From assembly GCF_000940845.1 (NCBI RefSeq), contig NZ_CP010341.1, forward strand, positions 1-32,000: 32,000 nucleotides of DNA, given 5' to 3'. This stretch comes from Propionibacterium freudenreichii subsp. freudenreichii. Lineage in GTDB: Bacteria > Actinomycetota > Actinomycetes > Propionibacteriales > Propionibacteriaceae. The notes beneath the pieces were generated by a model. It was given only the letters and a program-made list of their open reading frames with translations. It had not been told where the DNA came from and made no database searches. The translations under genes were made by a program, and so were the position numbers. Shown one piece after another: positions 1-20,306 of this stretch. Numbering within the stretch: position 1 is the stretch's first letter; the number at the start of each line of letters is the position of its first letter.

Positions 1-231
1 TTTGGCCAGTCGACACGCCGTAATCGGGTGTGTTCGCCGGTCATGGCTTTGCAAGTACTCGGCTGGGAAAGTAGCGTACTCAGCCGACCCCCCGATCCGA
101 TGCACGATGGTCCCGCTTCCCCCGGAAGCGCCCGTTCGGCGTCCCCTCCCGGGTGGTCAGTGACAAAAGCAGACACGACCGCGGCGTGTGATCCGAGTAG
201 GGTCGGCACAATCCGCCGACGAGAGCGAAGG

Positions 232-1707
232 ATGGACGGTGTGACTCGGGCTACAGACAGTGCTCAAGGGGCCCCCGACCTCCCTGATGCGTGGAAGCAC
301 GTGCTCTCTGACTTCGGTGGCCGCGACAAGGCCTACCTCAGGGGTGCCAAGGCCCTCACCGTGCATGAGTCCACCGTGATGATCGCGGTGCCCAATGACT
401 ACACGCGCGAGAACATCGAATCGAAGCTGCGCGACACCATCGAGTCGCGCCTGTCCGATGTGTACCACCGCGAGATGCGCCTGGCCATCACCGTCGAGCC
501 GAGCCTGGAGCTCGACCTGCGTCCCCCCGAACGCGACGAGGAGGCCGAGCGCGAGGTGGAGCCGGTGCAGTTCATCCCGCGCCAGGACGCCCCGGCGCCG
601 AGCCTGCGTGCGGTGGAGACCCCGCAACCGGCCAGCGCGGAATCCGCCGATGACACCGCGATCGCCGATGGACGCCTCAATCCGCGCTACACCTTCGACA
701 ACTTCGTGATCGGCTCGTCGAACCGCTTCGCCCATGCTGCCGCGGTGGCCGTGGCCGAGGCACCCGGCAAGGCGTACAACCCGCTGATGATCTATGGCGA
801 ATCAGGGCTGGGCAAGACGCACCTGCTGCATGCGCTGGGTCACTATGTGCGCAACTACTACTCCAATGTGCGCGTGAAGTACGTGAGCACCGAGGAGATG
901 ACCAATGAGTTCATCAACGCGGTGGGCGAGAACCGCACGGCCGAGTTCCGCCGCAAGTACCGCGACGACGTCGATGTGTTGCTGATCGACGACATCCAGT
1001 TCCTGGAGGGCAAGACCCAGACCCAGGAGGAGTTCTTCTACACGTTCAATGCGCTGCACAATGCCCAGCGCCAGATCGTGCTCACCTCCGACCGTCCGCC
1101 CAAGGCGCTGGAACAGCTCGAATCACGCCTGCGCAGCCGCTTCGAATGGGGGCTGATCACCGATATCCAGCCGCCCGACCCCGAGACGCGCATCGCGATC
1201 CTGCAGCGCAAGGCCGCCGCGGACAACCTTTCGGTGCCCCCGGGCGTGCTGGAGTTCATTGCCTCGAAGATCCAGACCAACATCCGTGAACTGGAGGGAG
1301 CGCTCATCCGCGTGACCGCCTTCGCCTCGCTCAATCGCGAGGAGGTGTCGCTGGCCGTGGCCGAGCAGGTGCTGCGCGACCTGATTCCCGACGGTGCCGA
1401 GGCCGATGTGACCGCCCCGACGATCATCCACGAGACCGCCAACTACTTCGGCGTGAGCGTCGACGACCTCATCGGCCCGAGCCGCAACCAGACCCTGGTG
1501 ATGGCCCGCCAGATCGCCATGTACCTGTGCCGCGAGCTCACCGACCTGTCGTTGCCGAAGATCGGCCAGGAATTCGGTGGCAAGGACCACACCACGGTGA
1601 TGCACGCCGATCGCAAGATCCGCAAGCTGATGAGTGAGCGCCGCAGCGTCTACAACCAGGTAACCGAGCTCACCAACCGCATCAAGCAGAATTCCGCGCG
1701 CCGCTAG
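232..1707 (+). CDS. dnaA: Chromosomal replication initiator protein DnaA
   Basis: ORF 28..1707. Has the AAA+ Walker A GESGLGKTHL, the RFEWGL and IRELEGAL blocks, and the C-terminal DNA-binding region (ARQIAMYLCRELT..LPKIGQEFGGKDHTTVMHA). Start moved to ATG 232, preceded by purine-rich GAGAGCGAAGG. GTG 241 (AAGGA 8 nt upstream) is equally possible. The ORF-track ATG 28 adds a non-conserved 68 aa. Confidence 0.93.
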   Translation: MDGVTRATDSAQGAPDLPDAWKHVLSDFGGRDKAYLRGAKALTVHESTVMIAVPNDYTRENIESKLRDTIESRLSDVYHREMRLAITVEPSLELDLRPPERDEEAEREVEPVQFIPRQDAPAPSLRAVETPQPASAESADDTAIADGRLNPRYTFDNFVIGSSNRFAHAAAVAVAEAPGKAYNPLMIYGESGLGKTHLLHALGHYVRNYYSNVRVKYVSTEEMTNEFINAVGENRTAEFRRKYRDDVDVLLIDDIQFLEGKTQTQEEFFYTFNALHNAQRQIVLTSDRPPKALEQLESRLRSRFEWGLITDIQPPDPETRIAILQRKAAADNLSVPPGVLEFIASKIQTNIRELEGALIRVTAFASLNREEVSLAVAEQVLRDLIPDGAEADVTAPTIIHETANYFGVSVDDLIGPSRNQTLVMARQIAMYLCRELTDLSLPKIGQEFGGKDHTTVMHADRKIRKLMSERRSVYNQVTELTNRIKQNSARR

Positions 1708-3151
1708 TCGCAGGCGAGATGAGGCCGCAGACGCCGACCCCCACCACGAGCACCCCCACGCACATCCACAACGCGGGCAGCAGCCCATCGACGAACGGCT
1801 GACCGGGACGATAGCTGCCGGCGCTGGTGAAGATGGCCGTGCAGACGGCGACCCCCAGCGTCACGCCCACCTGGCGCAGGGTGGAGTTCACGCCCGACGC
1901 CACTGCGTACTCGGGGCCCTGGCGACCCTGCAGCGCCGCCGTGGACAGCGGTGCGAAGCTCAGGCCCATGCCGACGCCACCGACGAACATCGGGGCGATC
2001 ACGGCGCCGTAGGTGACGCCCGGCGACAGCACGAGGGCCATCCACAGCAGCGCCACCGCCTCCAGGCCGAGTCCGATCATGAGCACCAGGCGCACGCCGA
2101 TGCGCTGCACGATCAATCCGACGATCGGCGCCATCACCATCGGCATCAGCGTCCAGGGCGCGGCGCGCCAGCCGGCACCCAGCGCCGAGTAGCCCATCGA
2201 CACCTCCAGGAACTGGCTCAGCAGGAAGATCGCGCCGAACACCCCGCCAGCGAACAGGAAGGTGGCGGCATTGGCGGCGCTGAACACCCGGTCGCGGAAC
2301 ATGGCAACCGGCAGGAAGGCCGAGCGCGCGCGACGCTCACGCATCAGGAAGCAGACGATGCACACCAGGGCCACGGCCAGTCCGAGCAGTGTGCGGGCGC
2401 TGGTCCAGCCGTGGTCGGGGGCCTCCACGATCGTCCACACGAGCATGAAGATCGACGCGATACCCAGGGCCATGCCAAGCAGGTCGATGCCCCGACGCTC
2501 CTGCGACCCACGCGCGGCGGCGGCACCCCGCAGGCTCACCAGGGCGAGCACGATGGCCACCACGCCGACGGGCACGTTGATCCAGAAGATCGCGCTCCAG
2601 TGCAGGCCCTGGATCACCGCGCCACCGACGATCGGACCCGCGGCAGTGCCGATGCCATTGACCCCGCCCCAGATGCCGATCGCCATCGGACGCTTCGCCG
2701 GCGGCACCATGTCGGCCAACAGGGCCAGCGACAGGGTGACGATCGCCGCCGCCCCGGCCCCCTCCACGGCACGCGCCGCGATGAGCATGGCCGATGAACC
2801 ACTCACCGCGGCCCAGGCGGAGGCGCCGGTGAACACGGTGATGCCGATGAGGAAGACGCGACGGCGTCCGAAGCGGTCACCCAACGCGGCCGCGGGCAAC
2901 AAGAGCGCCGCGAAAACGATCGTGTAGGCGTTCACGAACCACTGCAACTGCGTCACCGAGGCGTTCATCGCCTTCTGGATCACCGGCAACGCAAAGGTCA
3001 TCACCAGGTCGTCCAGGGCGGTCATCAGGGTGGGGAGGGCGGCGGCGATGATCACCATCGCCAGGCCGTGGCCGGCGCGCCCGCTTGGTCGGCGCGCATC
3101 GGACTCGGGTGCCTCGGGGGCGCCCGGGGACTGCCTCAGGATTATCGTCAT
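1682..3151 (-). CDS. MFS transporter, 14-TMS drug:H+ antiporter (EmrB/QacA, DHA2-like)
   Basis: 489 aa and hydrophobic throughout. MFS signature-like motifs (LGDRFGRRRVFLIG; GAGAAAIVTLSLALLADMVPPAKR). GGAG lies 8 nt upstream of ATG 3151. The 3' end overlaps the dnaA 3' end by 26 nt, convergently. Confidence 0.85.
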   Translation of the reverse strand: MTIILRQSPGAPEAPESDARRPSGRAGHGLAMVIIAAALPTLMTALDDLVMTFALPVIQKAMNASVTQLQWFVNAYTIVFAALLLPAAALGDRFGRRRVFLIGITVFTGASAWAAVSGSSAMLIAARAVEGAGAAAIVTLSLALLADMVPPAKRPMAIGIWGGVNGIGTAAGPIVGGAVIQGLHWSAIFWINVPVGVVAIVLALVSLRGAAAARGSQERRGIDLLGMALGIASIFMLVWTIVEAPDHGWTSARTLLGLAVALVCIVCFLMRERRARSAFLPVAMFRDRVFSAANAATFLFAGGVFGAIFLLSQFLEVSMGYSALGAGWRAAPWTLMPMVMAPIVGLIVQRIGVRLVLMIGLGLEAVALLWMALVLSPGVTYGAVIAPMFVGGVGMGLSFAPLSTAALQGRQGPEYAVASGVNSTLRQVGVTLGVAVCTAIFTSAGSYRPGQPFVDGLLPALWMCVGVLVVGVGVCGLISPATSGARNSA

Positions 3152-3164
3152 GTTGACTCCGTTC

Positions 3165-3216
3165 CACTAGATAGTGTTTCTATCTAACAAAACTAGATAG
3201 TATGTCTATCCAGTGG
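3165..3216. promoter_or_regulatory. Twin 19-bp palindromic operators in the divergent MFS/MerR intergenic region
   Basis: TAGATAG-TGTTT-CTATCTA (3168-3186) and TAGATAG-TATGT-CTATC (3194-3210), centres 26 bp apart. They are nested in an outer inverted repeat CCACTAGATAG...CTATCCAGTGG. The patch is AT-rich in a GC-rich genome. A candidate minus-strand promoter, TTGCAC (3225-3220) - 17 nt - TACTAT (3202-3197), overlaps palindrome 2. Confidence 0.55.
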
Positions 3217-3392
3217 CGGGTGCAAGATCGTCCCATGGCAGGCGCCGACGATGCGTTCGACACCGGGACGCCGAACCCCGGGCGCTGGGCCCCAACGCAA
3301 TGGGAACAGTGCAATGAACAACAGTGCAGCGAACAACGGGGCAACGGAGAACAGGGCGAAGGACGACAGGGACCTCAGGGAAGGGTGCATCG

Positions 3393-4010
3393 ATGCGCAT
3401 CTCGGAGCTGGCGCATGCGGCGAAGGTGCCGCTGCCAACCGTGAAGTACTACCAACGCGAGGGGCTGCTTCCCCCCGGACGGGCGGTCAACGCCCGCGAG
3501 TCGCAGTACGGCGAGGAGCACCTGTCCCGGCTGCGCGTGGTGCGCGTCCTGGTCACCGGGCTGGGCCTGACCATTGCCCAGGTGCGTCATGTGCTCGACG
3601 TGCTCGACGGCCCCCAGCGCGATCCCTACCAGGCGATGGGCGAGGCGACGAAGAACCTGCCGCTCACGGCACCGGCGTCGCAGACCAGCACCCCCGACGA
3701 TGACGTCGCCATGGTGCGCGCCCTGGGTTTCACCCACATCATCGATCCGCAGTTGGCCGGCCAGCTCGGCAATGCCCTGCGCTGGGCGGCCGAATCAGGC
3801 GTCAGCGTGACCCCGGAGCTCCTCGGCGCCTACCTGGACGCCACCCGGCAGATCGCCCGGGCCGACTTCGAGGTGATTCCCCGCACGAACTCCCGGGAGT
3901 CGGTCTCCTTCGCCGTGGTCGGCACCGTGGTGATGGAACCGGTGTTGCTCGCGCTGCGTCGACTGGCCCACGAGGAGCTTGCCCAGGAGATGGAGGACGA
4001 CGAGGGCTAG
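3393..4010 (+). CDS. MerR-family transcriptional regulator
   Basis: N-terminal MerR HTH: MRISELAHAAKVPLPTVKYYQREGLLPPGR...YGEEHLSRLRVVRVL. ATG 3393 is preceded by GGAAGGG. Divergent from the MFS gene. The stop overlaps the stop of the convergent glycosyltransferase (CTAG 4007-4010). Confidence 0.85.
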   Translation: MRISELAHAAKVPLPTVKYYQREGLLPPGRAVNARESQYGEEHLSRLRVVRVLVTGLGLTIAQVRHVLDVLDGPQRDPYQAMGEATKNLPLTAPASQTSTPDDDVAMVRALGFTHIIDPQLAGQLGNALRWAAESGVSVTPELLGAYLDATRQIARADFEVIPRTNSRESVSFAVVGTVVMEPVLLALRRLAHEELAQEMEDDEG

Positions 4011-5188
4011 CCGGGCCCGCGGCGCGACCGGCCACCCCGTGCGCGCTCGATCCCGTGCCGCTCGATGGCCTCGCGATAGCGCTCCACCAGGCTGCGGGTG
4101 GCCGCGGCCCAGTCGTGGCGCTCGGCCTCGGCCCGGGCCGCCACGGCCATGAGGGTACGCAGCCGACGCGCGGCGTCGTCGTCGCCCAGCAGGCGTCGGG
4201 CACGGTCGGCAAACCCGGCGCCGTCATGGGGCGTCACCAGAAAGCCATCGGTGCCGTCGTGGATCACATCGGGCAGCCCGCCCGCCGCGGCCGCGATCAC
4301 CGGCACGCCCGAGGCCATCGATTCCAGCGCCACCAGGCCGAGCGTCTCGGTGGTGGAGGGAAAGACGAAGGCGTCGGCGCTGGCATAGGCGGCAGCCAGC
4401 TCACTGCCCGCCAGGTAGCCGGTGAACACGGTGGGCGTACCCACGAAGGCCCGCTCCAGCTCGGCGCGGGCCGGGCCCGAACCCACCATCGCCAGGCGAT
4501 ATCCCTGCGCGCCCAGCACGCGCATCGGCTCCACCAGGTCGGCCAGGTCCTTCTCCCGACTCAGCCGCCCCACGTAGATCAGCAGCCGGGCATCGGGGTG
4601 GCCGTCGGTGAGCCGGGCGCGCATCGCGGCACTGGCCCGCCCGGGCCGGAACGTCTGCACGTCCACCGCCTTGGGCCACAGTTCCACGTGGCGCACGCCG
4701 CGACGCCGGGCCCGGCGCACCATCGTCGGCGAGGTGCACAGGTTCACCTGCGCCCGGTTGTGCAGGAACCGCGTCCACCCGACCATGGGACGCCGCGCCC
4801 ACCCGACGCCCAGCTTGCCCAGGTAGTCGGCCAGGTCGGTGTGATAGCTCGCCAACAGCGGCAGCCTGCGATGCACGGCCACCTCGACGCCGAACGCCGC
4901 CAGCGCCACGGGGTTGACCGCATGCACCACGTCGGGACGAAAGTGCACCATCTTGTCGGCGATGCTCGGTGTGGGCAGCCCCACCTTGATCTCGGGATAG
5001 ATGGGGCGCAGCGAGAAGGAGCGCACCCGCGACACCGGTTGACCCGCATGGCTGGCCGGTGGATTCCCGGGCGCGAAGACGAGCACCTCATGGCCGATCT
5101 CGCCGAGCTGCTCCAGGGTGTGGGTGAGCCGGGTGACCACCCCGTCGACCTTGGGCAGGAAGACCTCGGTGAACATGGCGACGCGCAT
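4007..5188 (-). CDS. GT4 glycosyltransferase, SQD2/SqdX-like (putative sulfoquinovosyl transferase)
   Basis: 393 aa. Matches recalled plant SQD2 block by block: SYHT...Y, FLH..A, LW.K.VD...F.P, VGR.S.EK, GP....LE..F.G.P.VFTG.L.G.EL..AYAS.D.FVFPS..ETLG.V.LE.M.SG.PV.AA.AGG.PD.I, DW.AAT. Lies 13 nt downstream of sqdB on the same strand. Confidence 0.8.
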   Translation of the reverse strand: MRVAMFTEVFLPKVDGVVTRLTHTLEQLGEIGHEVLVFAPGNPPASHAGQPVSRVRSFSLRPIYPEIKVGLPTPSIADKMVHFRPDVVHAVNPVALAAFGVEVAVHRRLPLLASYHTDLADYLGKLGVGWARRPMVGWTRFLHNRAQVNLCTSPTMVRRARRRGVRHVELWPKAVDVQTFRPGRASAAMRARLTDGHPDARLLIYVGRLSREKDLADLVEPMRVLGAQGYRLAMVGSGPARAELERAFVGTPTVFTGYLAGSELAAAYASADAFVFPSTTETLGLVALESMASGVPVIAAAAGGLPDVIHDGTDGFLVTPHDGAGFADRARRLLGDDDAARRLRTLMAVAARAEAERHDWAAATRSLVERYREAIERHGIERARGGRSRRGPG

Positions 5189-5201
5189 GGCGTCGGTTCC
5201 C

Positions 5202-6449
5202 CTAGCCCGCGTCGATCGCGGTCACCGGATCGGTCGGCAAGCCGCCGGGGGAATCCTCGCGGTATGCGGCCGGGATACCGGGCTGGCGGTCCTTCGTCCA
5301 CAGGGAGCGGGCCGGGATGTGGGCGAAGTCCACCCGGTCGCGATATTTGGCGGCGGTCTGGTTGATCTCGCCGAGCAGCCCCTGGCTCAGCGTGGTGGGA
5401 TGCAGGCCCAGGTCGAGGAATGCCTCGGCGGTGACGTGCAGTTCGTTCTCGTCGGCCTCGTTGCGCGGATCGGGCACGTTCTCCACCACGGCCCCGGTGA
5501 GGCGTGCCACCATCGCGGCCAGGTCGCGCACCCGGTGGGTCTCGGTCATCTGGTTGAAGATCTTCACCCGCACGCCGCGCTCGGGAGGGTTGGCCAGCGC
5601 CAACTCGATACAGCGGGTCATGTCCTGGATGTGGATGAACGCCCGCGTCTGACCGCCGGTGCCGTGCACGGTGAGCGGATAGCCGACCGCGGCCTGCACC
5701 AGGAAGCGGTTCAACACGGTGCCGTAGTCGCCGTCGTAATCGAAGCGGTTCACCAGCCGCTCATCGAGCTGCGTCTCGGGGGTGGACGTGCCCCAGATGA
5801 TGCCCTGGTGCAGGTCGGTGATGCGCAGCGCGTCGTTCTTCGCGTAGTAGGCGAACAGGTCCTGGTCGAGCACCTTGGTCATGTGGTAGATCGAGCCGGG
5901 GCTGGTGGGATAGAGGATCTCGCGGTGCATCTCGCCGGCCTCGCCGTTCACGGCGACGTCGAGATATCCCTCGGGGATCTTCATGCCGGCGGTGCCGTAG
6001 CCGTAGACGCCCATCGTGCCCAGGTGCACCAGGTGGATGTCCAGGCCCGATTCGACGATGGCGCACAGCACATTGTCGGTGGCGTTGACGTTGTTGTTCA
6101 CCGTGTAGCGCTTGTGGCGCGATGACTTCATGGAATAGGGCGCCGAGCGCTGTTCGGCGAAGTGCACGATGGCGTCGGGACGCAGCGTGACCAGCAGGTC
6201 GAGCAGGCGCTCGTAGTCGGTGGCGACGTCGAGCTCCACCAGGTCGAGATGGCGTCCGGTGGCCTCGGCCCAGGCAGCACGGCGCTCGGCGTTCGAGCGG
6301 ATGGGGGTCAGTGATCCGGCCCCGAGTTCCTCGTCGATGCGGCGTCGGGAGAAGTTGTCGACGATGGTCACCTCGTTGCCCAGCGCCGACAGGTGCAGGC
6401 TTGCGGGCCACCCGCAGAAGCCGTCGCCACCGAGAACCACAATCTTCAT
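5202..6449 (-). CDS. sqdB: UDP-sulfoquinovose synthase (SQD1/SqdB family SDR)
   Basis: MKIVVLGGDGFCGWP..LHLS..G.EV.IVDN.SRR.ID.ELG..SLTPI, HFAEQRSAPYSM, NNV..T.N.L.AI, LGTMG.YG, GS.YH..K, TDL.QG...G, R.DYD...GT.LNRF.VQAAVG.PLTV.G.GGQTR are nearly collinear with recalled SQD1. Start chosen at ATG 6449 (AAGGA 8 nt upstream). ATG 6458 is the alternative. The ORF-track start 6602 adds unconserved residues. Confidence 0.85.
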   Translation of the reverse strand: MKIVVLGGDGFCGWPASLHLSALGNEVTIVDNFSRRRIDEELGAGSLTPIRSNAERRAAWAEATGRHLDLVELDVATDYERLLDLLVTLRPDAIVHFAEQRSAPYSMKSSRHKRYTVNNNVNATDNVLCAIVESGLDIHLVHLGTMGVYGYGTAGMKIPEGYLDVAVNGEAGEMHREILYPTSPGSIYHMTKVLDQDLFAYYAKNDALRITDLHQGIIWGTSTPETQLDERLVNRFDYDGDYGTVLNRFLVQAAVGYPLTVHGTGGQTRAFIHIQDMTRCIELALANPPERGVRVKIFNQMTETHRVRDLAAMVARLTGAVVENVPDPRNEADENELHVTAEAFLDLGLHPTTLSQGLLGEINQTAAKYRDRVDFAHIPARSLWTKDRQPGIPAAYREDSPGGLPTDPVTAIDAG

Positions 6450-6620
6450 CTGCGTCATCCTTTGCTCACGAGGTCGGGCCCCGGGGGTGCTTCGCGTGTG
6501 AACGCCGTCGCTCACCACATTAACCAGACGGCCCTGCCACACTTCGCCCACCTGCGGCCGGCCTGACGCGAACGGACGGCCGCAGCCATCAGATTTCACC
6601 AAGTTTTCATGCGGTTCTCC

Positions 6621-6868
6621 CTGTCCGCAGACCTGTGGATAACTCGCCGTTCATGGGGAGATCATGTGGACGCCCATCCCCAACCCTCCGCCGCTGTCCA
6701 CAGGCGTCCACAGGCGCATGGCGTGTCGTCAACAGCGCATCAACAGGCAGATCGGGCCGAATCACGCCTGAAACGGCAGTTGTCCACCGGATCCACACGT
6801 GTGAAGAGGGGTACTGAATGGACATACAAAGAAGAAATTCCAAGTCTGCTGCACCCATCTGTGGACGG
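6621..6868. promoter_or_regulatory. Cluster of eight DnaA-box-like 9-mers (candidate oriC or DnaA-binding region)
   Basis: Read directly. CTGTCCGCA 6621-6629 (7/9). TGTGGATAA 6634-6642 (rc TTATCCACA, 9/9). TGTGGACGC 6665-6673 (7/9). CTGTCCACA 6694-6702 (8/9). GCGTCCACA 6704-6712 (7/9). TTGTCCACC 6780-6788 (8/9). GGATCCACA 6789-6797 (7/9). TGTGGACGG 6860-6868 (7/9). Scored against TT(A/G)TCCACA. An AT-rich tract (cagatttcaccaagttttcat, 6588-6608, 14/21 A+T) adjoins the cluster. Confidence 0.6.
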
Positions 6869-7864
6869 CCCCACGAGCCACGGGAAGACGGCTCGGCAGG
6901 GCCCCGAAGGTGCGCTAACGTGACCGTCGTGCCCCCACAAGACAGTCCACGAGCACGTCGTGCCGCAGCCGACGATCCGGGTGTATCAGACGGCGTTCCC
7001 GAAGCGACGTCCGCCGCCCTGCATGCCGACGAGCAGCCCCCGCTGGGCGAGGTCCCCGTACCGCGGGATGACAACTCGGAGATCGCTGCGTACACCAGGG
7101 ACCTGACCAAGGTCTACGGCAGCGGCGACGCCGAGGTGGTGGCGCTCGACCATGTTGACGTCGACTTCTTCAAGGCACGCTTCACCGCCGTGATGGGCCC
7201 CTCGGGGTCGGGCAAGTCAACGCTGATGCACTGCGTGGCCGGCCTGGACGCACCCACCTCAGGCGAGGTGGTGATCGGCGACACCAACATCGCCACCCTC
7301 AAGGACTCCAGGCTCACCGAACTGCGCCGTGACCGCATCGGCTTCGTGTTCCAGTCATTCAACCTGATTCCCACGCTCACCGCGCTGGAGAACATCGAGT
7401 TGCCGATGGCGATCGCCGGGCGCAAGCCCGACCCGGAATGGCTCGACCACGTGATCGACATCGTGGGGCTGCGCAGCCGCCTCAAGCACAAGCCGTCGCA
7501 GCTTTCCGGCGGCCAGCAGCAGCGCGTGGCGTGTGCCCGCGCCCTGGTGGGCAAGCCCGACATCATCTTCGCCGACGAACCCACCGGCAACCTCGACTCG
7601 GCGGCCTCCGCCGAGATCCTGGGCTTCCTGGCCTCCAGCGTCACCGACCTGGGCCAGACCATCGTGATGGTCACCCACGACCCCACCGCGGCCGCCTACG
7701 CCAATCGGGCGTTGTTCCTGGCCGACGGGCGCATCGTCGCCGACATGGACGATCCCGACCGCGACAAGGTGCTCGCCCGCATGGTCGAGCTGAGCTCCCC
7801 GGTTGACGCGTCCGCACCCGGTGCGTCGACGCAGGCTGCCGGTCCTTCGACAGTTCAGGGCTGA
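6818..7864 (+). CDS. ABC transporter ATP-binding protein (MacB/LolD/FtsE-like) with a disordered N-terminal extension
   Basis: Walker [11 protein letters not shown]-loop, signature [15 protein letters not shown], Walker [14 protein letters not shown]-loop VMVTHD. No in-frame ATG or GTG lies close to the ATPase core, so an N-terminal extension of at least 50 aa is real. Candidate starts are ATG 6818 (GAGGGG 8 nt upstream), GTG 6920 and GTG 6929. Confidence 0.88.
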
Positions 7865-7865
7865 C

Positions 7866-10424
7866 ATGTGGAAGGCGTCGTGGAAGTCCCTGATGGGACA
7901 CAAGGTCCGGCTGCTGTTGTCCGCCCTGTCGGTGGTGTTGGGCATCGCCTTCCTGTCGGGTGCGCTCACCTTCACCGGCATGCTGTCGAACACCTTCGCC
8001 GCGATCACCCAGGGCACGATCGCCGATGTGTCGGTGGGGGTGAAGGGCACCCAGAGCATTGACTCGGTGGTGACCCCGGATTACACGAAGAACCACCTGA
8101 CCAACGCCGATATCGACCGCATCCGCGGCGTGGCGGGTGTGGAGTCAGCCTCGGGGCAGATCACCCAGATGAACACGGTCTACCTGTTGGGCACCAACAA
8201 CAAGGTGGTCGGCATGGCCGGGCCACCGTCGATCGCCAGCAATTTCACCACCGAGCCGGCAATGAATCACAAGCCCGGCATCGAGGTGCGCAGCGGGCAG
8301 GCACCCACCACCGACGACGAGGTGGCGGTGGATCCCAGCTCGTTGGAGCGCAGTGGCTATCACCTCGGTGACACGGTGAAACTGCTTGCCAATGGACAGA
8401 CCATCACCAAGAAGCTGGTGGGCACGGCTGCCTGGGGTTCGGGTGGCAGTGCCGGTGCCGCCTATGTCTTCTTCGACGACGTCACCGCTTCCCAGCTGTT
8501 CATGGGTGGCGCACCGGGCTATATGCAGGCGGCCGTCACGGTGAAGGCTGGCTCCGATGTCGACGCCGTGACCAAGGCTGTCGCTGCCGCGGTGCCGGAT
8601 GGGTTCGAGGCGGTTCCGGGACATCAGGTGGCCGACCAGTTGAAGACCGCGCTCGACCAGGCGATGGACTTCGTCAACATCTTCCTGGGGGTCTTCGCGG
8701 CGATATCCCTGGTGGTGGCCTGCTTCCTCATTGTGAACACCTTCTCAATGCTGGTGGCTCAACGCAGTCGTGAGCTGGCGCTGTACCGGGCACTGGGCGC
8801 GTCCCGCGGTCAGGTGGCACGGTCGGTGATCTTCGAGGCCCTGCTGACCGGTCTGGTCGGCGGGGTCATCGGGGTTGGGCTGGGTGCCTTTCTGGCTTAT
8901 GGAATCGGAGAAGCCGTGACGGCGGCTGGCATGGATATGGTCTCTTCGGTGCCCATGCCGTCGTGGCAGAACGCATTGTTGTCGGTGGTGATCGCCGTGG
9001 TGGTCACGGTGGTCGCCGCCTGGTTCCCCTCGCGGCGCGCGAGCCGGGTGCCGCCGATCGCGGCAATGACTGGTGAGGTGACGTCGGGCGAGGGGGGTCT
9101 GGGGCGTCGCACGCTGGTCGGCACGATCATGCTGGTGGTCGGCATCGCGGGCATCTGGTCGGGTGTCACCCTGAAGGTCAGCAAGAATATGTGGCTGCTG
9201 GGTGGAGGTGCCTTCCTGGTGCTCATCGCGGTCACCTTGATGAGCCCGGTGATCGGGCGTCCGCTCATCTGGGTGATGGGACGGGCCTACCGGTTGTTGT
9301 TCGGTGAGACGGGAAAGCTTGCCGAGCTGAATGCGATCCGACTGCCCCGACGCACCGCCGCCACCGCGTCGGCGTTGATGATCGGCATCACATTGGTGTC
9401 AACCCTGTCGATCCTGGGCGCCTCCGCGAGCACATCCACCGAGCACTCCGTGCGGGACAGCCTTCGTGGCGACTTTGTCATATCGAGCCTCAATTATGGG
9501 CCGCTGCCTGCCAGCCTCTTCGACGAGGTGAAATCGACGCAGGGCGTCGCCTCGGTGCATCGGGCACGGACGGCGGCGACCACAATCAACGGCGCGCGCG
9601 CCCGGGTCATCGGCTATCCGACCAGCGATTTCAACAAGATCCAGGCGCAGTCGATGGTCACCGGCACCATGGGCGATGCGCTGGGCGAGGTGATCGTCTC
9701 GCAGGCCTACGCCGACGAGCAGAAGCTGCAGGTGGGCGGCACGCTCGAGTCGGTGGACGCCGCCACCATGGCGCCGCTGAAGCTCACCGTCACCGGCATC
9801 TTCACCACGCCCAAGGGAGGTGGCTTCGGATCGATCAACGCGAACCTTGCCACCGTGGCAGCCCTGGGCAACCGTGACCGCGACAGCCAACTGTCGGTGG
9901 ACGCCGCACCGGGCGCGTCGCACCAGTCGGTGCAGGACGCCCTCGATTCGGCCACCAGCGACAACCCGCTGATCGTGGTGCAGAACCAGCAGGAATATGC
10001 CAAGGCGCAGAGCGCCCAGATCGACCAGATGCTCACCACTGTGTACGCCCTGCTGGGGTTGGCCGTGGTGATCGCGGTGCTGGGCATCGTGAACACGCTG
10101 GCCCTGTCGGTGGTGGAACGTACCCGCGAGATCGGGTTACTGCGCGCCGTGGGCATGAAGCGTGGCCAGCTGAGGCTGATGATCACCCTGGAATCGGTGA
10201 TCATCGCCGTGCTTGGTGCCGTGCTCGGCCTGGTGATGGGCCTGGGCTTCGGCGTGGCCCTGCAGCACGTGCTGGTTGACCAGGGACTGTCGATCCTGTC
10301 GATCCCGTGGGGCCGGTTGGGAATCTTCCTGGCCGTGTCGGTGGTGGTGGGCGTGCTGGCCGCAGTGGTGCCCGCCCGACGCGCCACCAAGCTGAACATG
10401 CTCGACGCCATTTCCAGCGAATAG
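7866..10424 (+). CDS. ABC transporter permease with two FtsX/MacB-type domains
   Basis: 852 aa. Two FtsX-like modules (…IVNTFSMLVAQRSRELALYRALGASRGQV… and …IVNTLALSVVERTREIGLLRAVGMKRGQL…), each preceded by a large extracytoplasmic loop. ATG 7866 is 1 nt after the ATPase stop (TGAcATG). Confidence 0.88.
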   Translation: MWKASWKSLMGHKVRLLLSALSVVLGIAFLSGALTFTGMLSNTFAAITQGTIADVSVGVKGTQSIDSVVTPDYTKNHLTNADIDRIRGVAGVESASGQITQMNTVYLLGTNNKVVGMAGPPSIASNFTTEPAMNHKPGIEVRSGQAPTTDDEVAVDPSSLERSGYHLGDTVKLLANGQTITKKLVGTAAWGSGGSAGAAYVFFDDVTASQLFMGGAPGYMQAAVTVKAGSDVDAVTKAVAAAVPDGFEAVPGHQVADQLKTALDQAMDFVNIFLGVFAAISLVVACFLIVNTFSMLVAQRSRELALYRALGASRGQVARSVIFEALLTGLVGGVIGVGLGAFLAYGIGEAVTAAGMDMVSSVPMPSWQNALLSVVIAVVVTVVAAWFPSRRASRVPPIAAMTGEVTSGEGGLGRRTLVGTIMLVVGIAGIWSGVTLKVSKNMWLLGGGAFLVLIAVTLMSPVIGRPLIWVMGRAYRLLFGETGKLAELNAIRLPRRTAATASALMIGITLVSTLSILGASASTSTEHSVRDSLRGDFVISSLNYGPLPASLFDEVKSTQGVASVHRARTAATTINGARARVIGYPTSDFNKIQAQSMVTGTMGDALGEVIVSQAYADEQKLQVGGTLESVDAATMAPLKLTVTGIFTTPKGGGFGSINANLATVAALGNRDRDSQLSVDAAPGASHQSVQDALDSATSDNPLIVVQNQQEYAKAQSAQIDQMLTTVYALLGLAVVIAVLGIVNTLALSVVERTREIGLLRAVGMKRGQLRLMITLESVIIAVLGAVLGLVMGLGFGVALQHVLVDQGLSILSIPWGRLGIFLAVSVVVGVLAAVVPARRATKLNMLDAISSE

Positions 10425-11091
10425 GGATATTGCGACGCCGTGCTGCGATATTCCCCGGAGTTATCGCTTGCGGATATCGATTATTGGCCTCGTGGGGCCC
10501 GCCCGGTGACGAGCAGGTGAATTCCCTGCCGGACGCCCATCCCTGACGCCCAGCTCCGCGCGCCGGCGGGTGGCTCGGTGTCCCGCCCGGTGGTGCAACC
10601 CGGTGGCGCGACCCATGTCCCCTGCCGATACCCCGGATGGCATGGCACGTCGCCCGAGGCGGGGCTTCGGGGTGTGGGGGCTCGCAGGGTGGGGGCTGGC
10701 CCGTCTCGTCGGATGAACGCGCCCCGGACGGCGTCGTGGCTGGTCAGGGCCGTGTGGCCGCAACGACGGCCCTGCACGCGGTCGCGTCCCGGGCCCGATG
10801 ACGCCTGGTGAGGGACGCCATGGTCGGTGTGCTCGTCCCGGCGGTTTCCCATGCCGGCAGTCCCCCATGCCGGTGGTGAGTTCGCGGTCCTGACTGGTGG
10901 GCTGGCCGGGGCGTCCACCGGAAGTGGGCCCAACCCGGCGGAATCTGCTTTCGCGACGCTGTTGCCGCAACTATCGCGTCGACAAACCGCGCTCGTGGAT
11001 TGGCGCGACATCCGCCGACTGCGACGCCGTGATCGGCCCGTGATGGCGCGCGCTCAGTGGAATCGGGTCGCCTGGGGAAGCTGCGCACACC

Positions 11092-11335
11092 GGTGGACAA
11101 ACTGTTGATAACTTCGCTGATCGGAGCCGATGTGCGGTGTTTCCTGCTTGTCGGGCTGTGGTGTTGTGGCGGTTCGCGTGCCGGGGCGCCACCGACGGAG
11201 TGACGCTTTTCCCGCGTGAAAGTGCGATCGTTGAAGCATTTACGGCCTCGCCGGTCGGTGCCTGCGGGTGCTCCGCGGGCAGCCGATGGTTACCCAGAGA
11301 GTTATCCACAGGGCGGTGGGTTGATTGGTGGATAA
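11092..11335. promoter_or_regulatory. Four DnaA-box-like sites in the long dnaN-upstream non-coding region
   Basis: GGTGGACAA 11092-11100 (rc TTGTCCACC, 8/9). TGTTGATAA 11103-11111 (rc TTATCAACA, 8/9). TTATCCACA 11302-11310 (9/9). GGTGGATAA 11327-11335 (rc TTATCCACC, 8/9). A direct repeat GGCGGTGGGTT at 11312 and 11343 flanks the last box. Confidence 0.5.
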
Positions 11336-11835
11336 GTCGACAGGCGGTGGGTTCGGCGTCGCCAGCGCGGCGCAGGGCTTGGGGGTGACGATGCGTCACG
11401 ATCGGGCCCGCTTGTCAACCGACACGAAGGTGACCACTGCCCCCACCGTGACGGGGCCGGCACAGCACAGATCTTGCGGCCGAATGCCCCCTGTGGCGCA
11501 TGATTTCCCGGGATGGGTACGTCGCCGATCACGACGCGCCAAGGGCTCGGGGCGAGGTCGGTCTGCGATGCGCCGGTCGATCCCCCCGTCCGGTGTTGCG
11601 GCCGTGCCGTCCCATGTCGGCCGGGACGCCGCAGGGCGCCGTGGCACGCCCTCGCCGCGCCCCGCTATTGGGGCACTCCGCTGTTGGGGCTGCCACCGAA
11701 GGAACCGGTGTCCTGAGGCGGAACCCAGGTCGCCGTCGAGCCCCTGCGGCCATGACGCAGGAAATCCGTGGGTTCGCTGCCCTACGCGCTCGATTTCTTC
11801 GGCCCGGCGGCGGTCACCGCAGGCGGCGTCAGAGT

Positions 11836-11859
11836 GACGTCGGGCGGGACGTCGGGCGG
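11836..11859. repeat. Perfect 12-bp tandem duplication (GACGTCGGGCGG x2)
   Basis: Read directly at 11836-11847 and 11848-11859. Followed by GGCGGTCGG-like partial copies. Confidence 0.8.
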
Positions 11860-11917
11860 TCGGCAAGGCGGTCGGAATGGGTGAACAACGCGTGAACACA
11901 TTGCGGGGTGCTTTCAG

Positions 11918-11992
11918 GGAGCGCCATAAGGGAGCGCGATAAGGCAGCGCCATAGGTGATCTCGCAGAGATAAGGGATTGGCACAAGGGATT
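11918..11992. repeat. Three head-to-tail 13-mers plus 13-bp-spaced AAGGGATT repeats about 310 bp upstream of dnaN
   Basis: GGAGCGCCATAAG (11918-11930), GGAGCGCGATAAG (11931-11943), GCAGCGCCATAGG (11944-11956). Then ATCTC-GCA-GAGAT mini-palindrome. AAGGGATT occurs at 11972-11979 and 11985-11992. This is locally the least GC-rich part of the intergenic region. Confidence 0.7.
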
Positions 11993-12299
11993 TCGTGCCG
12001 GAACCGCTATTTTCTTCACCCGGTCCTCGTCCGCGCGGGATATCGCCGCCATCCCGCGGGATTGACGGGGCAACGCCGCGTCCACACGACCATTCCATGG
12101 GTGCATCGGCGTCCGCTCGCCGCTATTGCCGGCCGATGGGGTGCCCGCAGCTCTGTGATGTCGCGGGGTCATGCGTCAACCCTCAACCGTCACTTGCCAC
12201 CGCTGAACAGAACGTCGGAGCAGGCCGATATGATGCAAGCGCCGCGGTAGGCGGCTTGCCGAGTGGTCGAGAAAGACAGCACAACGGAGCGAGGAATCA

Positions 12300-13460
12300 G
12301 TGAAGATCACAGTCGAGCGCGATGTCATGGCGGAGGCTGTTGCCTGGGTGGCACGCAGCCTGCCCAATCGCCCGAGCGTTCCGATCCTTGCCGGCCTGCT
12401 CATGAGGGCCACGGGGAGCCAGCTCGTGCTGTCGAGCTTCGACTATGAGACCAGTGCACGCATCACCATTGACGCGCAGGTCGATGAGGAGGGCGAGGCC
12501 CTCGTCTCGGGGCGCCTGCTGTCAGAGATCGCCCGCAGCCTGCCCAATCGTCCGGCCCGCTTCACCGCCAACTCCAACCACGTGGAACTGGTGTGTGGCT
12601 CGGCCCGCTTCACCCTGCAGATGCTGCCGGTGGAGGACTACCCGCAGCTGCCCGAGATGCCCGCCGAGAGCGGCACCGTCCCCAGCGACGAGTTCACCCG
12701 TTCCGTGGCCCAGGTGGTGGTGGCCGCCGGTCGCGACGAGCTGCTGCCCGTGTTCACCGGCGTGCGCATCGAGATCAACGACGATCGCCTCTCGCTGCTG
12801 GCCACCGACCGCTACCGCATGGCGTTGAAGGAACTCACCTGGAATCCGGCCACCACGCAGGCCGAGAGCGCCGCCCTGGTGCCCGCCCGCGTGCTGTCGG
12901 AATCGGCCCGTTCCATGGGTGGTGGCGAGGCCGTTGCCCTGGCATTGTCCAATGGCATCGAGGGCGAGGGGCTCATCGGATTGTCCGGCGAGGGCGCCGG
13001 CGGACGCCGCGAACTCACCACCCGGCTGCTCGACGGCGAATTCCCCAAAGTGCGCCACCTGATGGACATCAAGCCCAATGTCACCGTGCGCGTGAAGACC
13101 GAGGAGGTGCTCGAGTCGGTCAAGCGCGTCTCCCTGGTCGCCGAGCGCAACACCTCGGTGCGCATGGTCATCGAGGACGACCGCATCGCACTCGACGCCG
13201 CCACCGGCGACCAGGCGCAGGCCACCGAGGCCATTGAGGCCCAGGTGAACAATGTGGCCGGCGGCGAGATGGCCGTATCGGCCGTGGGGTTCAACCCCCG
13301 CTACCTGACCGATGCGCTCTCGGCGCTTGATACGCCCTATGTGCAGTTCTCGTTCACGGCCCCCGGCAAGCCCTGCCTGGTGCAGGGACTGCCCGACGTC
13401 GATGGCGAGCCCGAGGCCGACTACAAGCATGTGATCATGCTGATGCGCCTGCCCGGCTGA
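12300..13460 (+). CDS. dnaN: DNA polymerase III beta sliding clamp
   Basis: 386 aa with a typical DnaN N-terminus (MKITVERDVMAEAVAWVARSLP.RPSVPILAGLLM...LVLSSFDYETSARI) and three-domain length. GTG 12300 is preceded by GGAGCGAGGAA. Position is upstream of recF. Confidence 0.92.
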   Translation: MKITVERDVMAEAVAWVARSLPNRPSVPILAGLLMRATGSQLVLSSFDYETSARITIDAQVDEEGEALVSGRLLSEIARSLPNRPARFTANSNHVELVCGSARFTLQMLPVEDYPQLPEMPAESGTVPSDEFTRSVAQVVVAAGRDELLPVFTGVRIEINDDRLSLLATDRYRMALKELTWNPATTQAESAALVPARVLSESARSMGGGEAVALALSNGIEGEGLIGLSGEGAGGRRELTTRLLDGEFPKVRHLMDIKPNVTVRVKTEEVLESVKRVSLVAERNTSVRMVIEDDRIALDAATGDQAQATEAIEAQVNNVAGGEMAVSAVGFNPRYLTDALSALDTPYVQFSFTAPGKPCLVQGLPDVDGEPEADYKHVIMLMRLPG

Positions 13461-13533: not shown

Positions 13534-14835
13534 ATGTTCGTCGAGCACCTCGAGCTGAAGGACTTTCGTTCCTACGAGGCCGCCAAGCTCGATATCGGCC
13601 CGGGTGTGTCGGTGTTCGTGGGGCCCAACGGCCACGGCAAGACCAACCTGGTGGAGGCCGTCGAATACCTGTCGACGCTGTCGAGCCACCGGGTGTCGGC
13701 CGATGCGCCATTGATCCGCGCCGGCACCAGCCAGGCGATCGTCAGGGCGCTGGTGGTGGCGGGTCGCGACGACCCCCGCAAGCTGCTGCTGGAGCTCGAG
13801 ATCAACGCCGGACGCGCCAACCATGCGCGCATCAACCGGGCGCCGGTGCGGCGGATGCGCGATTTCATCGGGGCGCTGCGCACGGTGGTGTTCAGCCCCG
13901 AGGACCTGGCGATGGTGAAGGGCGATCCCACCGACCGGCGTGCCTTCCTCGATGCCCTGGTGATCACCCGGTGGCCGCGGCTGGCCGGCGTGAAATCTGA
14001 CTACGACCGGGTGCTGCGGCAACGTAATACCCTGCTGAAGACGCTGGCGCGACGCTCGTCGCGCGTCGATGGGGGCGACGTGGCCACCCTCGACGTGTGG
14101 AACGAGCGGCTGGCCCAGTTCGGCGCTGAGCTGTTGGCGGCGCGGCTGGCAACCCTGTCCGACCTGATGCCCTATGCGCGGGCGAGCTATGCGGCGATCG
14201 CGCCGGTGAACAACCGGGTGGACGCCCGCTACAAGTCGTCGTTGGGTGGGCTGTCCGAGCTGCTGGGCTATGCCACCGACGGTGCACCCGGTGAGCTTCC
14301 GGAGGCCGCGGACACCGACGACGAAGTGCGCACCCCGGCGCCCGGGCCCGACCAGCTGGCGGTGCTCATGATGGACGCCATGGCTGCGCGGCGCGGCGAC
14401 GAACTCGCCCGCGGCGTCACCCTGGTGGGTCCCCACCGCGATGATGTGACCCTGACGATCGGCACCCTGCCGGCGAAGGGCTATGCCAGCCACGGTGAGA
14501 GCTGGTCGCTCGCCCTGGCGCTGCGGTTGGGATCACTCGACATGCTGCGCGCCGACGACGTGGAGCCGGTGCTGGTGCTCGACGATGTGTTCGCCGAGCT
14601 CGACGTGACGCGACGTGATCGCCTTGCCGACGCCGTCGCGAAGGCCGAGCAGGTGCTGGTGACTGCCGCGGTCGGCTCCGACGTGCCCGGGCAGCTGAAT
14701 GGGCAGCGCTTCGACGTCGACCTGCGCGGATCGGCGCACGCCGGGCATGAGGAGAGCGCCACCGGGCCGCGTGTTTCGATCGTGTCCCCAGCCTTGTCCA
14801 CAGGCTCTGTCCACAGGTCTGTGGACAATGACTGA
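13534..14835 (+). CDS. recF: DNA replication/repair protein RecF (with about 45-aa C-terminal read-through tail)
   Basis: MFVEHLELKDFRSYE, Walker A GPNGHGKTNL, signature-like HGESWSLALALRLGS, Walker B LVLDDVFAELD. ATG 13534 lies 8 nt after GGGAGGGG. The last ~45 codons (…RGSAHAGHEESATGPRVSIVSPALSTGSVHRSVDND) lie beyond the conserved RecF end and run through the DnaA-box trio. Confidence 0.9.
   Translation: MFVEHLELKDFRSYEAAKLDIGPGVSVFVGPNGHGKTNLVEAVEYLSTLSSHRVSADAPLIRAGTSQAIVRALVVAGRDDPRKLLLELEINAGRANHARINRAPVRRMRDFIGALRTVVFSPEDLAMVKGDPTDRRAFLDALVITRWPRLAGVKSDYDRVLRQRNTLLKTLARRSSRVDGGDVATLDVWNERLAQFGAELLAARLATLSDLMPYARASYAAIAPVNNRVDARYKSSLGGLSELLGYATDGAPGELPEAADTDDEVRTPAPGPDQLAVLMMDAMAARRGDELARGVTLVGPHRDDVTLTIGTLPAKGYASHGESWSLALALRLGSLDMLRADDVEPVLVLDDVFAELDVTRRDRLADAVAKAEQVLVTAAVGSDVPGQLNGQRFDVDLRGSAHAGHEESATGPRVSIVSPALSTGSVHRSVDND
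14794..14828. promoter_or_regulatory. Three DnaA boxes at 13-bp spacing overlapping the recF stop and dciA start
   Basis: TTGTCCACA 14794-14802 (9/9 to the actinobacterial consensus). CTGTCCACA 14807-14815 (8/9). TGTGGACAA 14820-14828 (inverted, 9/9). The last base of box 3 is the A of the dciA ATG. Confidence 0.65.
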
Positions 14836-15663: not shown

Positions 15664-17176
15664 CCCGACGGGCCGGCTCTGGCAAGGGGATTCGTGGCGA
15701 ATCCGGCCGCCCCACGGTCACCACGGTGGGCGCATGTGACCACGATGTGAAAGTCGGGGACAGGGTCTTCACAGGAACCTATGAGTTCCAGTAATCTGCA
15801 CTACAGGACGACCGGGTGCCGTTCAGCCCTTGTTTCAACCCCACCTCAAGGAGCACTGCCCCATGAAGACTCGTGTTCGCTCCCGCAAGCCGGCCGCTGG
15901 CCTTGCCGGGATAGCCCTTTTCGCCAGCGGCCTCAGCCTCATGTCAACCGTCGCATCCCGTGCCGATTCCGGGCTGCCCAGTGGAGTCCACGAGGGGGTG
16001 TGCATCCCGAAGGACGGTGCTGGATCGTTCAACATCATCAACAATGACGACCAGATGAGTCGAACGAAGTACACCGACAGCTACGACAACATCTACCGAT
16101 GCATTACTCCCCCAGCAGCCCAGGCAGCTGGGCTGACCTATTCATCACCGATGAAGTCATTCCTGCATGCGGCCGGATTTACGTCAACCGATGTCTCTGA
16201 CAAGTCAATTCTTGCCCAGGATGATCAGTGGAAGGGCTATACAAATGGCGCAGATGGTACGCCGCTGACGAATTCCTACGGGGCCCCTTTGAACTCGATG
16301 ATCGCCGCTTATGATCGTGATGGATCCGTTACCACGAAAATTGACGGAAATCCGAGCAAGTACGGTCAGGATCTGCCGATTCCGGGCTACTGGGATACGC
16401 AAGTGGGAACGGCATCAAGTGGTAACTGGTGGATTCCAAACAACGGCCCGACCGGAACCGGCGGGGTCGTGGCAGGGTCGTATCTCTGGAACCAGCGAGT
16501 AGCTGCTGGAACACTCGGCCAGCAGGACGACGGCACGCCTTTTGAGGAGATACAGAAGGGTAATCCGGCACTGAAGCGAGATTGGAACACGATACATTGG
16601 AACACAATCCAATTCAATTTCAATCCATCGAACACACCCGCGTTCACATTTATTGATTATTTAGGCTTTCGTGACCTGAATAATCTGCCTCCGATTGACG
16701 TAACTCAGCGGGACATCAATGCAAATGTGACGCTCAAACTCTCGACCATGTATGAGGGATATCCTGGAACATCCTTCCCGGCGCGTCCAGAGAGTGACTT
16801 CGCGGCCGGAAAACTCAAGACAGTTCAGCGAACGCACGAGAACGATCCTGACGTGATACCTGCAGATGACGTGTCGGAACCCTCCACCCCAGGTGTGAGC
16901 ACTCCGTCACCGCAGCCTTCTTCGCCGCAGCCGTCGTCTCCTGCGACGGGTGGTGATGGTGGTGGTACCACGGTGCCGCCGGCGGGTGATTGCTTCGTGG
17001 ATGTGCATGCGGGTGATCAGTTCGCGGATGATATTTGCTGGGCGAAGTCCCAGGGGATCACCACGGGTTGGCCTGATGGTACGTATCGTCCGGTGACGCC
17101 GATCAATCGTGATGCGTTGATTGCCTATATCTATCGTTTGGCTGGTTCTCCGGCGTTTACGCCGTCGGGTCAGACG

Positions 17177-18282: not shown

Positions 18283-18661
18283 ACGTTCTCGGATGTGGCC
18301 CCGTCGAATCAGTTCTACAAGGAGATCGAGTGGGCCGCGAGCACCGCTATCACCACTGGTTGGCCTGATGGCACGTTCCGTCCGACGACTCCGGTGGCGC
18401 GTGATGCGATGGCTGCTTTCTTGTATCGGCGTGCCGGGTCTCCTGCTTTCCTGGCTCCTGGTGTTCCGTCGTTCACTGATGTGGGTGCGGGGAACATGTT
18501 CTATCAGCAGATCGAGTGGATGAAGTCGACTGGTGTGTCCACGGGTTGGGTTGATGGGACGTATCGTCCATTGGACGCTACGAACCGTGACGCGATGGCA
18601 GCATTCCTGCACCGCTACAGCAACATCGGGAAGTAACCACCCGAACAAACAAACCAGCTGA

Positions 18662-18704
18662 GGGCTTGTGGGCGCGGCATTGAATCGTCGCCCCGCAAGC
18701 CCTT
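18662..18704 (+). terminator. Hairpin downstream of the SLH gene
   Basis: AGGGCTTGTGGG (18662-18673) pairs with CCCGCAAGCCCT (18693-18704), 12 bp including one G-U. Starts 26 nt after the stop and is followed by TTACTG (weak U tract). Confidence 0.45.
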
Positions 18705-18878
18705 ACTGCGAGCCCTGATGTTTCGCGAACCAGGCCGATGCCCACCCACGTGGCATTGGCCACCTCATTGGCGGGAATGGCCCTGATCGTCCGACAAGGA
18801 CCGCGCCATCTACCGCCGCCTTGTGCCCCCGGGATGGACCTGTTGGGCAATGACAGTGCAATCAGAAGGGATGTGGCG

Positions 18879-19901: not shown

Positions 19902-19974
19902 ATCAATCCGCTCGCCCGGGACGACCGCGTCCCTACCGATCCGACGCGAGGTGCCCCCACCGGGGGCCGGACGC

Positions 19975-20030
19975 GCAGGACAGGGGCGACAAGGGCACCG
20001 TCCACAGTGCCCTTGTCGCCCCTGTCCTGC
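19975..20030. terminator. 24-bp perfect inverted repeat (I-shaped terminator candidate) with a DnaA-box-like loop
   Basis: GCAGGACAGGGGCGACAAGGGCAC (19975-19998) pairs with GTGCCCTTGTCGCCCCTGTCCTGC (20007-20030). The loop is CGTCCACA. Lies about 75 nt after the stop of the upstream gene. No U tract. Confidence 0.5.
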
Positions 20031-20259: not shown

Positions 20260-20268
20260 TGGTAGAAT
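20260..20268 (+). promoter_or_regulatory. Candidate extended -10 element of the gyrB promoter
   Basis: TGGTAGAAT (TGn + TAGAAT) lies 54 nt upstream of the gyrB GTG. The -35 is poor (TGGGTA at 17-nt spacing). Confidence 0.4.
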
Positions 20269-20306
20269 CGTCAGGGTGTGCTGCGAGCATTCGCGCACTG
20301 TGATGA

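Follow-up and report, generated by a model that had tools for sequence, protein, structure and literature searches.

Gene Pair at 4007–6449

The first 32,000 nucleotides of the Propionibacterium freudenreichii subsp. freudenreichii genome (NZ_CP010341.1, positions 1–32,000, forward strand; this whole stretch is referred to as the window) raise the question of what is made from two adjacent genes lying between dnaA and dnaN, namely a homologue of UDP-sulfoquinovose synthase (sqdB) and a gene for a family 4 glycosyltransferase (GT4). The pair is read here as a two-gene operon of the sqdB–sqdX type that most probably makes sulfoquinovosyl diacylglycerol (SQDG) from UDP-glucose, sulfite and diacylglycerol (DAG); the probability of this reading is put at about 0.8. 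In known systems SQDG is made from these three substrates by SqdB/SQD1 and SqdX/SQD2 (10.1101/2022.08.18.504050; PMC13436972). The two open reading frames (ORFs) that an initial annotation of the DNA had placed at 4007–6449 were found at these positions, co-oriented on the minus strand:

5202–6449, minus strand: sqdB, UDP-sulfoquinovose synthase homologue, 415 aa plus stop (SQD1 match, NF041015, conserved residues)
5189–5201, minus strand: spacer of 13 nt from the sqdB stop to the GT4 start (ORF coordinates)
4007–5188, minus strand: sqdX-like GT4 glycosyltransferase, 393 aa plus stop, predicted UDP-sulfoquinovose:diacylglycerol sulfoquinovosyltransferase (Pfam, orthology, linkage to sqdB)
6458–6462, minus strand: Shine–Dalgarno-like AAGGA, 8 nt upstream of the ATG at 6449 (read from the sequence)

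The GT4 gene directly follows sqdB, and the 13-nt spacing is consistent with co-transcription of the two; the promoter/terminator scan indicated no terminator-like site between them and no sigma-70 consensus site at the locus. The sqdB promoter presumably lies inside 6450–6817. The sqdB start at 6449 was preferred to the starts of longer ORFs at 6458 and 6602, because AAGGA is found 8 nt upstream of it and the homologues start with MKI.

Identity of the SqdB Homologue

In the initial annotation the 415-aa product was called nearly collinear with plant and cyanobacterial UDP-sulfoquinovose synthase, and four motifs were quoted; all of them (GGDGFCGW, HFAEQRSAPYSM, LGTMGVYG and LNRFLVQAAVGYPLTVHGTGGQTR) are contained in the translation, and the collinearity was borne out by SQD1 structures, which aligned over residues 5–389. 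Three SQD1 entries (including 1qrr and 1i24) ranked first among all PDB sequences (E 1e-98, 334 bits, ~50% identity); the next-best structure was a UDP-glucuronate decarboxylase with 46 bits. The sole strong NCBIfam match was NF041015 (UDP-sulfoquinovose synthase), 340 bits.

The family is defined by a GxxGxxG NAD site and the SQD1 triad Thr145/Tyr182/Lys186, and the residues of Agl3 found essential by mutation are His95, Arg101, Met145, Tyr182 and Lys186 (PMC4388408). The GxxGxxG motif and the triad (T145, Y188, K192) of the window SqdB line up with SQD1, and the equivalents of His95, Arg101 and Met145 of Agl3 are H96, R101 and M146; G7/G10/G13, H96, R101, T145, M146, Y188 and K192 were invariant when ten diverse SqdB proteins were aligned.

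Identity to Sinorhizobium meliloti SqdB is 64% and to Marinovum SqdB 67%, both of these being encoded in loci of the sqdB–sqdD(–sqdC) type (sqdB–sqdD in the former). In the SqdB tree it fell in a clade with rhizobial and Caulobacterales proteins (63–70% identity), separate from the main cyanobacterial/plant clade (43–50% identity); haloarchaeal relatives are only ~35% identical. Most relatives carry only the database name 'NAD-dependent epimerase/dehydratase'. An ordinary epimerase or dehydratase was rejected on scores of 44 bits (GalE model) and 37 bits (dTDP-glucose dehydratase, RmlB, model). Phylogeny and profile searches had been proposed as a check in the initial annotation, and both placed this short-chain dehydrogenase/reductase (SDR) in the SqdB/SQD1 family and not among ordinary epimerases or dehydratases. 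Its assignment as a true SqdB/SQD1-family enzyme with predicted synthase activity is strongly supported.

Two SqdB types were observed in cyanobacteria (G103, G158): the common one is 43–48% and the second one 61–67% identical to the window SqdB; G103 has both, and the second type groups in a clade with proteobacterial and actinobacterial proteins.

Identity of the GT4 Glycosyltransferase

The 393-aa product contains PF13439 and PF00534/PF13692, the standard GT-B domains of GT4 enzymes, and E281 and E289 of its EX7E motif are kept in all groups compared. SqdX was located by position, the lone GT4 adjoining sqdB in cyanobacteria being taken as SqdX. Twenty-one of 61 Cyanobacteriota genomes were SqdB-positive; in each of these 21, and in no other, the window GT4 had a single strong match, always adjacent to sqdB (46–51% identity, full length, E 1e-99 or better). 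Back-search of one of these cyanobacterial proteins against the source genome returned the window GT4 first (377 bits, 51%), followed by a paralogue (186 bits).

In a maximum-likelihood tree with branch support from the Shimodaira–Hasegawa-like approximate likelihood ratio test (SH-aLRT), 51 sqdB-linked GT4s were split from the family-wide paralogue (SH-aLRT 100); the cyanobacterial proteins formed one clade (SH-aLRT 99), and the clade of the window protein comprised Actinomycetota, Deinococcota and one Verrucomicrobiota genome (SH-aLRT 96). Sixteen positions are common to the actinobacterial and cyanobacterial sqdB-linked GT4s and different in the paralogue, with clusters at D15/V18/T19/R20 and, beside the EX7E motif, at F276/S278/T280/L283. 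The window GT4 and SqdX are alike in size and architecture (377–393 aa). The adjacent enzyme had initially been assigned to the SQD2/SqdX type, and the sqdB-linked clade shared with cyanobacterial SqdX and the reciprocal best match both point the same way. Orthology and gene linkage, by way of position and phylogeny, support the GT4 as a putative counterpart of SqdX.

Two curated names were tried and rejected: GpgS (N-acetylglucosaminyl-phosphatidylglycerol synthase, NF053787), 184 bits vs a cut-off of 480; MshA (D-inositol-3-phosphate glycosyltransferase, TIGR03449), 98 bits vs 462.5, with only the C-terminal half (169–376) aligned. Both scores are below the curated cut-offs, and both names are therefore excluded. 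The UniRef name MshA on some relatives of the GT4 is unsupported and other relatives are named only generically; ESM Atlas names of the relatives are generic or automatic names of the MshA type only; the cyanobacterial clade likewise has only generic database names.

The paralogous GT4 (genome positions 694242–695393) is 36–37% identical to the window GT4, and counterparts of it (33–41% identity) were observed in most genomes of the family (79 of 101 with a match of E 1e-30 or better). Its best curated match is also GpgS (143 bits, below the cut-off); this paralogue could be the synthase of a family-wide glycolipid.

Linkage and Distribution of the Pair

SqdB was found in 16 of 101 genomes of the window's family (8 of 40 genera; 2 of 5 genomes of the genus), and a GT4 orthologue (46–71% identical) directly adjoined sqdB in all 16. 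No GT4 orthologue was found in the 85 family genomes without sqdB, the best GT4 match there being at most 41% identical. The sqdB–GT4 module is accessory in the family: patchy, and always present as a pair. The same adjacent pair was found in Kocuria, Citricoccus, Corynebacterium (mucifaciens, riegelii, lubricantis and others), Gulosibacter, 'Zimmermannella' faecalis, Trueperaceae and one Verrucomicrobiales genome; proteins closely related to both members of the pair are encoded in Ornithinimicrobium. All 29 actinobacterial proteins in the window's clade of the SqdB tree (SH-aLRT 90) had an adjacent GT4, and the actinobacterial SqdBs without this GT4 (Nocardioidaceae, Pseudonocardiaceae, Isoptericola, a Rhodococcus plasmid) were placed elsewhere in the tree. 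All-against-all comparison of the neighbours at 27 loci gave the pair itself and shadow frames only, with no conserved third gene; the MacB-type ATP-binding cassette (ABC) exporter beside sqdB was common only to the sister species within the short flanks compared.

In the phylum sample SqdB was present in 74 and this GT4 in 22 of 301 genomes; when five unpublished SqdB-positive genomes (G166, G213, G338, G390, G403) are left out, the tallies become 69 and 22 of 296, and no other claim is affected. Twenty-one of the 22 GT4-positive genomes came from a single family outside the window's class; both proteins are encoded in 21 of its 22 genomes, and the complete pair is thereby present in a second actinobacterial lineage. 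There (e.g., G236, G370, G250) SqdB and the SqdX-like GT4 were often observed unlinked.

One genome of the window's family (G045:C2:261027-265172) contained another sqdB type, 47% identical to the window SqdB (NF041015, 470 bits) and resembling the cyanobacterial, plant and archaeal types; its adjacent GT4 (45–46% identical) grouped with the Pontibacillus protein. This locus suggests a second, independent acquisition of the pair.

On the 523-kb linear plasmid of Rhodococcus qingshengii (NZ_CP054208.1, 199186–210355), sqdB (62% identical) is followed by genes for a 640-aa hypothetical protein and a 625-aa glycosyltransferase, with a SulP anion transporter and an alkyl sulfatase encoded on the flanks; no SqdX or SqdD was found there, and this is a different sulfoquinovose context.

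Proposed Pathway, Substrates and Expression

In the first step NAD+-bound SqdB would oxidise UDP-glucose at C4 and eliminate water to give the 4-keto-5,6-ene; sulfite would then be added at C6 and C4 re-reduced, giving UDP-sulfoquinovose. This predicted conversion of UDP-glucose and sulfite is strongly supported by the sequence evidence. In the second step the retaining GT4 would move sulfoquinovose from UDP-sulfoquinovose to sn-1,2-diacylglycerol at the inner membrane face; orthology and gene linkage are the grounds on which this transfer is predicted. The resulting SQDG would be an anionic, phosphorus-free lipid and, by analogy only, might partially replace anionic phospholipid, probably at phosphate scarcity.

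The source genome is a single contig of 2.65 Mb (~67% GC). For sulfite-forming sulfate assimilation a cluster of sulfite reductase, CysH and CysD genes is located at ~2.294–2.297 Mb, and sulfite is therefore a normal intermediate; a eukaryote-type pyrophosphorylase of the UDPGP family (PF01704) is encoded at 1941227–1942456 (380 bits). Judged from the genome, sulfite would be supplied by the former and UDP-glucose by the latter. The UDPGP-family pyrophosphorylase was present in none of 14 control genomes.

PFREUD_00050 of P. freudenreichii, the fifth gene from dnaA, as is sqdB in the window, is the probable orthologue of the window sqdB. It is listed as 'sqdB, UDP-sulfoquinovose synthase' in the microarray table of a 2012 data set, with a significant signal and lower expression in the cold (p 0.004; supplement of PMC3258244).

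Weighing of SQDG against Other Products

Several points weigh against SQDG as the product. SqdB is under the NF041015 cut-off (340 vs 575 bits); the Synechococcus elongatus control was likewise below it and only Sulfolobus exceeded it, so the cut-off is one for the archaeal Agl3 type rather than for the family at large. NCBIfam holds no curated SqdX/SQD2 model, and the best curated match of the GT4 there is GpgS, well short of its cut-off. The predicted SqdX identity rests on position and conservation in cyanobacterial genomes, and ~48% identity to cyanobacterial SqdX is insufficient proof of the same acceptor. A canonical GalU was not found in the source genome, and the literature searched contained no biochemical or lipid data for any actinobacterium. 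For propionibacteria, acylated inositol mannosides and not SQDG are the classically described glycolipids.

The main rival explanation accepts that SqdB makes UDP-sulfoquinovose and lets the GT4 use a non-DAG acceptor (a small molecule, a lipoglycan, an inositol-based glycolipid or some different membrane lipid), whereby the product would be an actinobacteria-specific sulfoglycoconjugate instead of SQDG; it is considered unlikely. It draws on the separation of the actinobacterial GT4 clade from the cyanobacterial SqdX clade (SH-aLRT 96 and 99, only ~48% identity), on the very different substrates taken by GT4 relatives (the best curated match, GpgS, uses phosphatidylglycerol; MshA, BshA and Mgs come next) and on the phylum sample, in which SqdB is found in 74 of 301 genomes but this GT4 in only 22. 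Against this, the reciprocal best match and clade membership tie the GT4 to SqdX, the positions that both share sit around the nucleotide-sugar site, the GT4 has the SqdX size and architecture, and no further gene that could supply or process another acceptor is kept beside the pair. Use of an acceptor typical of actinobacteria, e.g., an inositol-containing glycolipid or a lipoglycan anchor, by the actinobacterial SqdX-like clade is a rather improbable case.

It is very unlikely that the GT4 mainly uses another donor (UDP-glucuronate, UDP-glucose) and forms a neutral or uronic glycolipid, its place beside sqdB then reflecting shared regulation and not a pathway. Plant SQD2 also makes glucuronosyl-DAG, which speaks for such a donor. 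Related lipid GT4s can have a broad donor range (PMC8231724). The GT4, however, lies beside sqdB in 16 of 16 SqdB-positive genomes of the family and in 21 of 21 of the cyanobacteria, and never occurs without sqdB in either sample; co-occurrence is thus complete in two independent samples, a pattern not to be expected of a GT4 that had no need of UDP-sulfoquinovose.

That the pair is an intact acquired module, physiologically silent or dispensable and giving no product under normal growth, would fit its patchy distribution (two of the five genus genomes and 16 of the 101 family genomes), its place within a variable 10.6-kb dnaA–dnaN stretch and the missing report of the lipid, but has very little probability, as both ORFs are intact with all catalytic residues kept, the pair sits at the corresponding site in another species of the genus (71–80% identity), and the probable orthologue PFREUD_00050 is transcribed and cold-responsive.

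Comparison with Known Systems

SQDG formation by the predicted pair would be closest in design to Synechococcus elongatus PCC 7942 sqdB–sqdX and Arabidopsis SQD1/SQD2, where an SDR-type UDP-sulfoquinovose synthase is likewise combined with a GT4 sulfoquinovosyltransferase. The order sqdB then GT4 and the short spacer are those of the 21 sampled sqdB-positive cyanobacteria (21/21), and the predicted chemistry is the same. Unlike cyanobacteria and plants, the host of the window is a non-photosynthetic, high-GC Gram-positive bacterium without thylakoids; the window SqdB belongs to the rhizobial/Caulobacterales clade and the GT4 to the actinobacterial/Deinococcota/Verrucomicrobiota clade.

The closest characterised SqdB (64%) is that of the Rhodobacter sphaeroides/Sinorhizobium meliloti sqdBDC and sqdA systems; S. 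meliloti is also a non-phototrophic host, and its SQDG is a phosphate-sparing anionic lipid. These systems differ in using the GT8 glycogenin-like SqdD, the reductase SqdC and the acyltransferase SqdA, and in making SQDG via sulfoquinovosyl-glycerol. The SqdD (GT8) route was rejected for the window: tblastn with S. meliloti SqdD was empty at this locus and at every actinobacterial sqdB locus examined.

Among Bacillota, Bacillus coahuilensis, Marinococcus and Salinicoccus provide a precedent for SQDG in non-phototrophic Gram-positive bacteria of low-phosphate habitats, and Pontibacillus has a same-clade sqdB with a GT4 ~3 kb away (40% identity to the window GT4). The Bacillota are another phylum with the GT4 in another sub-clade, and the lipid has been demonstrated there. 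Sulfolobus acidocaldarius Agl3 belongs to the same enzyme family as the window SqdB, in which its essential residues are kept; it differs in that archaeal UDP-sulfoquinovose feeds protein N-glycosylation through other glycosyltransferases.

Relation to Previous Annotation and Significance

Phototrophs are usually regarded as the makers of sulfoquinovose, the degradation of which supports the formation of sulfite and sulfide by other microbes. The initial annotation had described sulfoquinovosyl lipids as characteristic of phototrophs and a few rhizobia; the rhizobia stand, and the list of non-phototrophic producers is longer, comprising Rhizobiaceae, Caulobacteria (Caulobacterales), Marinococcus, Salinicoccus and Bacillus coahuilensis (10.1101/2022.08.18.504050). 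It had also held that no such lipid or glycoconjugate was described for Propionibacteriaceae-like actinobacteria. This agrees with the literature searched, in which no paper on SQDG in any actinobacterium was found and no sulfolipid was mentioned in the genome paper PMC2909200 or in the main text of PMC3258244; the gene itself had already been labelled sqdB. PFREUD_00050 is also among the 33 UDP-sulfoquinovose synthases from KEGG and NCBI in a 2015 tree, and it has been stated that non-photosynthetic bacteria carry the UDP-sulfoquinovose synthase gene (PMC4388408). The locus adds a new host group to a well-known pathway, partly anticipated by existing annotation.

If the SqdB/SqdX pair works as predicted, propionibacteria, corynebacteria and micrococci would join the producers as food-borne or host-associated non-phototrophs; these bacteria would have a phosphorus-free anionic lipid, and some of the 'unidentified glycolipids' of actinobacterial chemotaxonomy would be explained. 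If the product is plain SQDG, cheese and body sites would contain non-phototrophic sulfoquinovose producers that have gone unrecognised; if the acceptor is one typical of actinobacteria, dairy, skin, oral and urogenital members of this group would make sulfonated envelope glycolipids of a new class.

Gene Order between dnaA and dnaN

Besides the pair, the following features were assigned in the window:

1–1707, plus strand: dnaA, at the window start
1682–3151, minus strand: major facilitator superfamily (MFS) efflux gene of the DHA2/EmrB type
3324–4010, plus strand: MerR-family regulator
6450–6817, no strand: divergent intergenic region of 368 bp between sqdB and the MacB-type ABC exporter operon, with DnaA-box-like motifs (sequence, motif matches)
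6818–7864 and 7803–10424, plus strand: MacB-type ABC exporter, ATPase and duplicated FtsX permease, respectively
between the FtsX permease and dnaN: two ORFs without recognised family
12300–13460: dnaN, followed by recF and then by a DciA-domain gene
22411–25146: gyrA, further downstream

The distance between dnaA and dnaN is 10.6 kb here (1708–12299). In the sister species (G051) the order is dnaA, GT4 and sqdB, ABC exporter, dnaN, and the MFS gene, the MerR gene and the two unknown ORFs are absent. The pair, found at the same site in both species, was therefore there before their split, cargo having been gained or lost in the region afterwards; the smaller insert of the sister species thus marks the dnaA–dnaN gap as a variable cargo site in the genus.

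DnaA-box-like motifs gave 13 matches in the whole window vs 5.2 expected. The initial annotation had put the pair next to a DnaA-box cluster: motifs are indeed present upstream of sqdB at 6634, 6694 and 6780 (6634–6797), but the nearness follows from the position of the pair between dnaA and dnaN and is not evidence of a functional link. The region upstream of sqdB in G051 gave one DnaA-box-like match, a weak correspondence.

Between the DciA-domain gene and gyrB (15830–20300) the long ORFs, including an 814-aa frame at 15830–18274, gave no Pfam, NCBIfam or PADLOC match, and the GC content dips in this part to 0.545 at 16–17 kb vs ~0.67 elsewhere. Further DnaA-box-like motifs were observed at 11092–11310 and at 14794–14828; the latter group lies at the recF/DciA junction and consists of three closely spaced motifs, two of which are perfect, and an equivalent cluster was observed in G051 at 3104–3163 of its compared locus (G051:C29:9500-29400).

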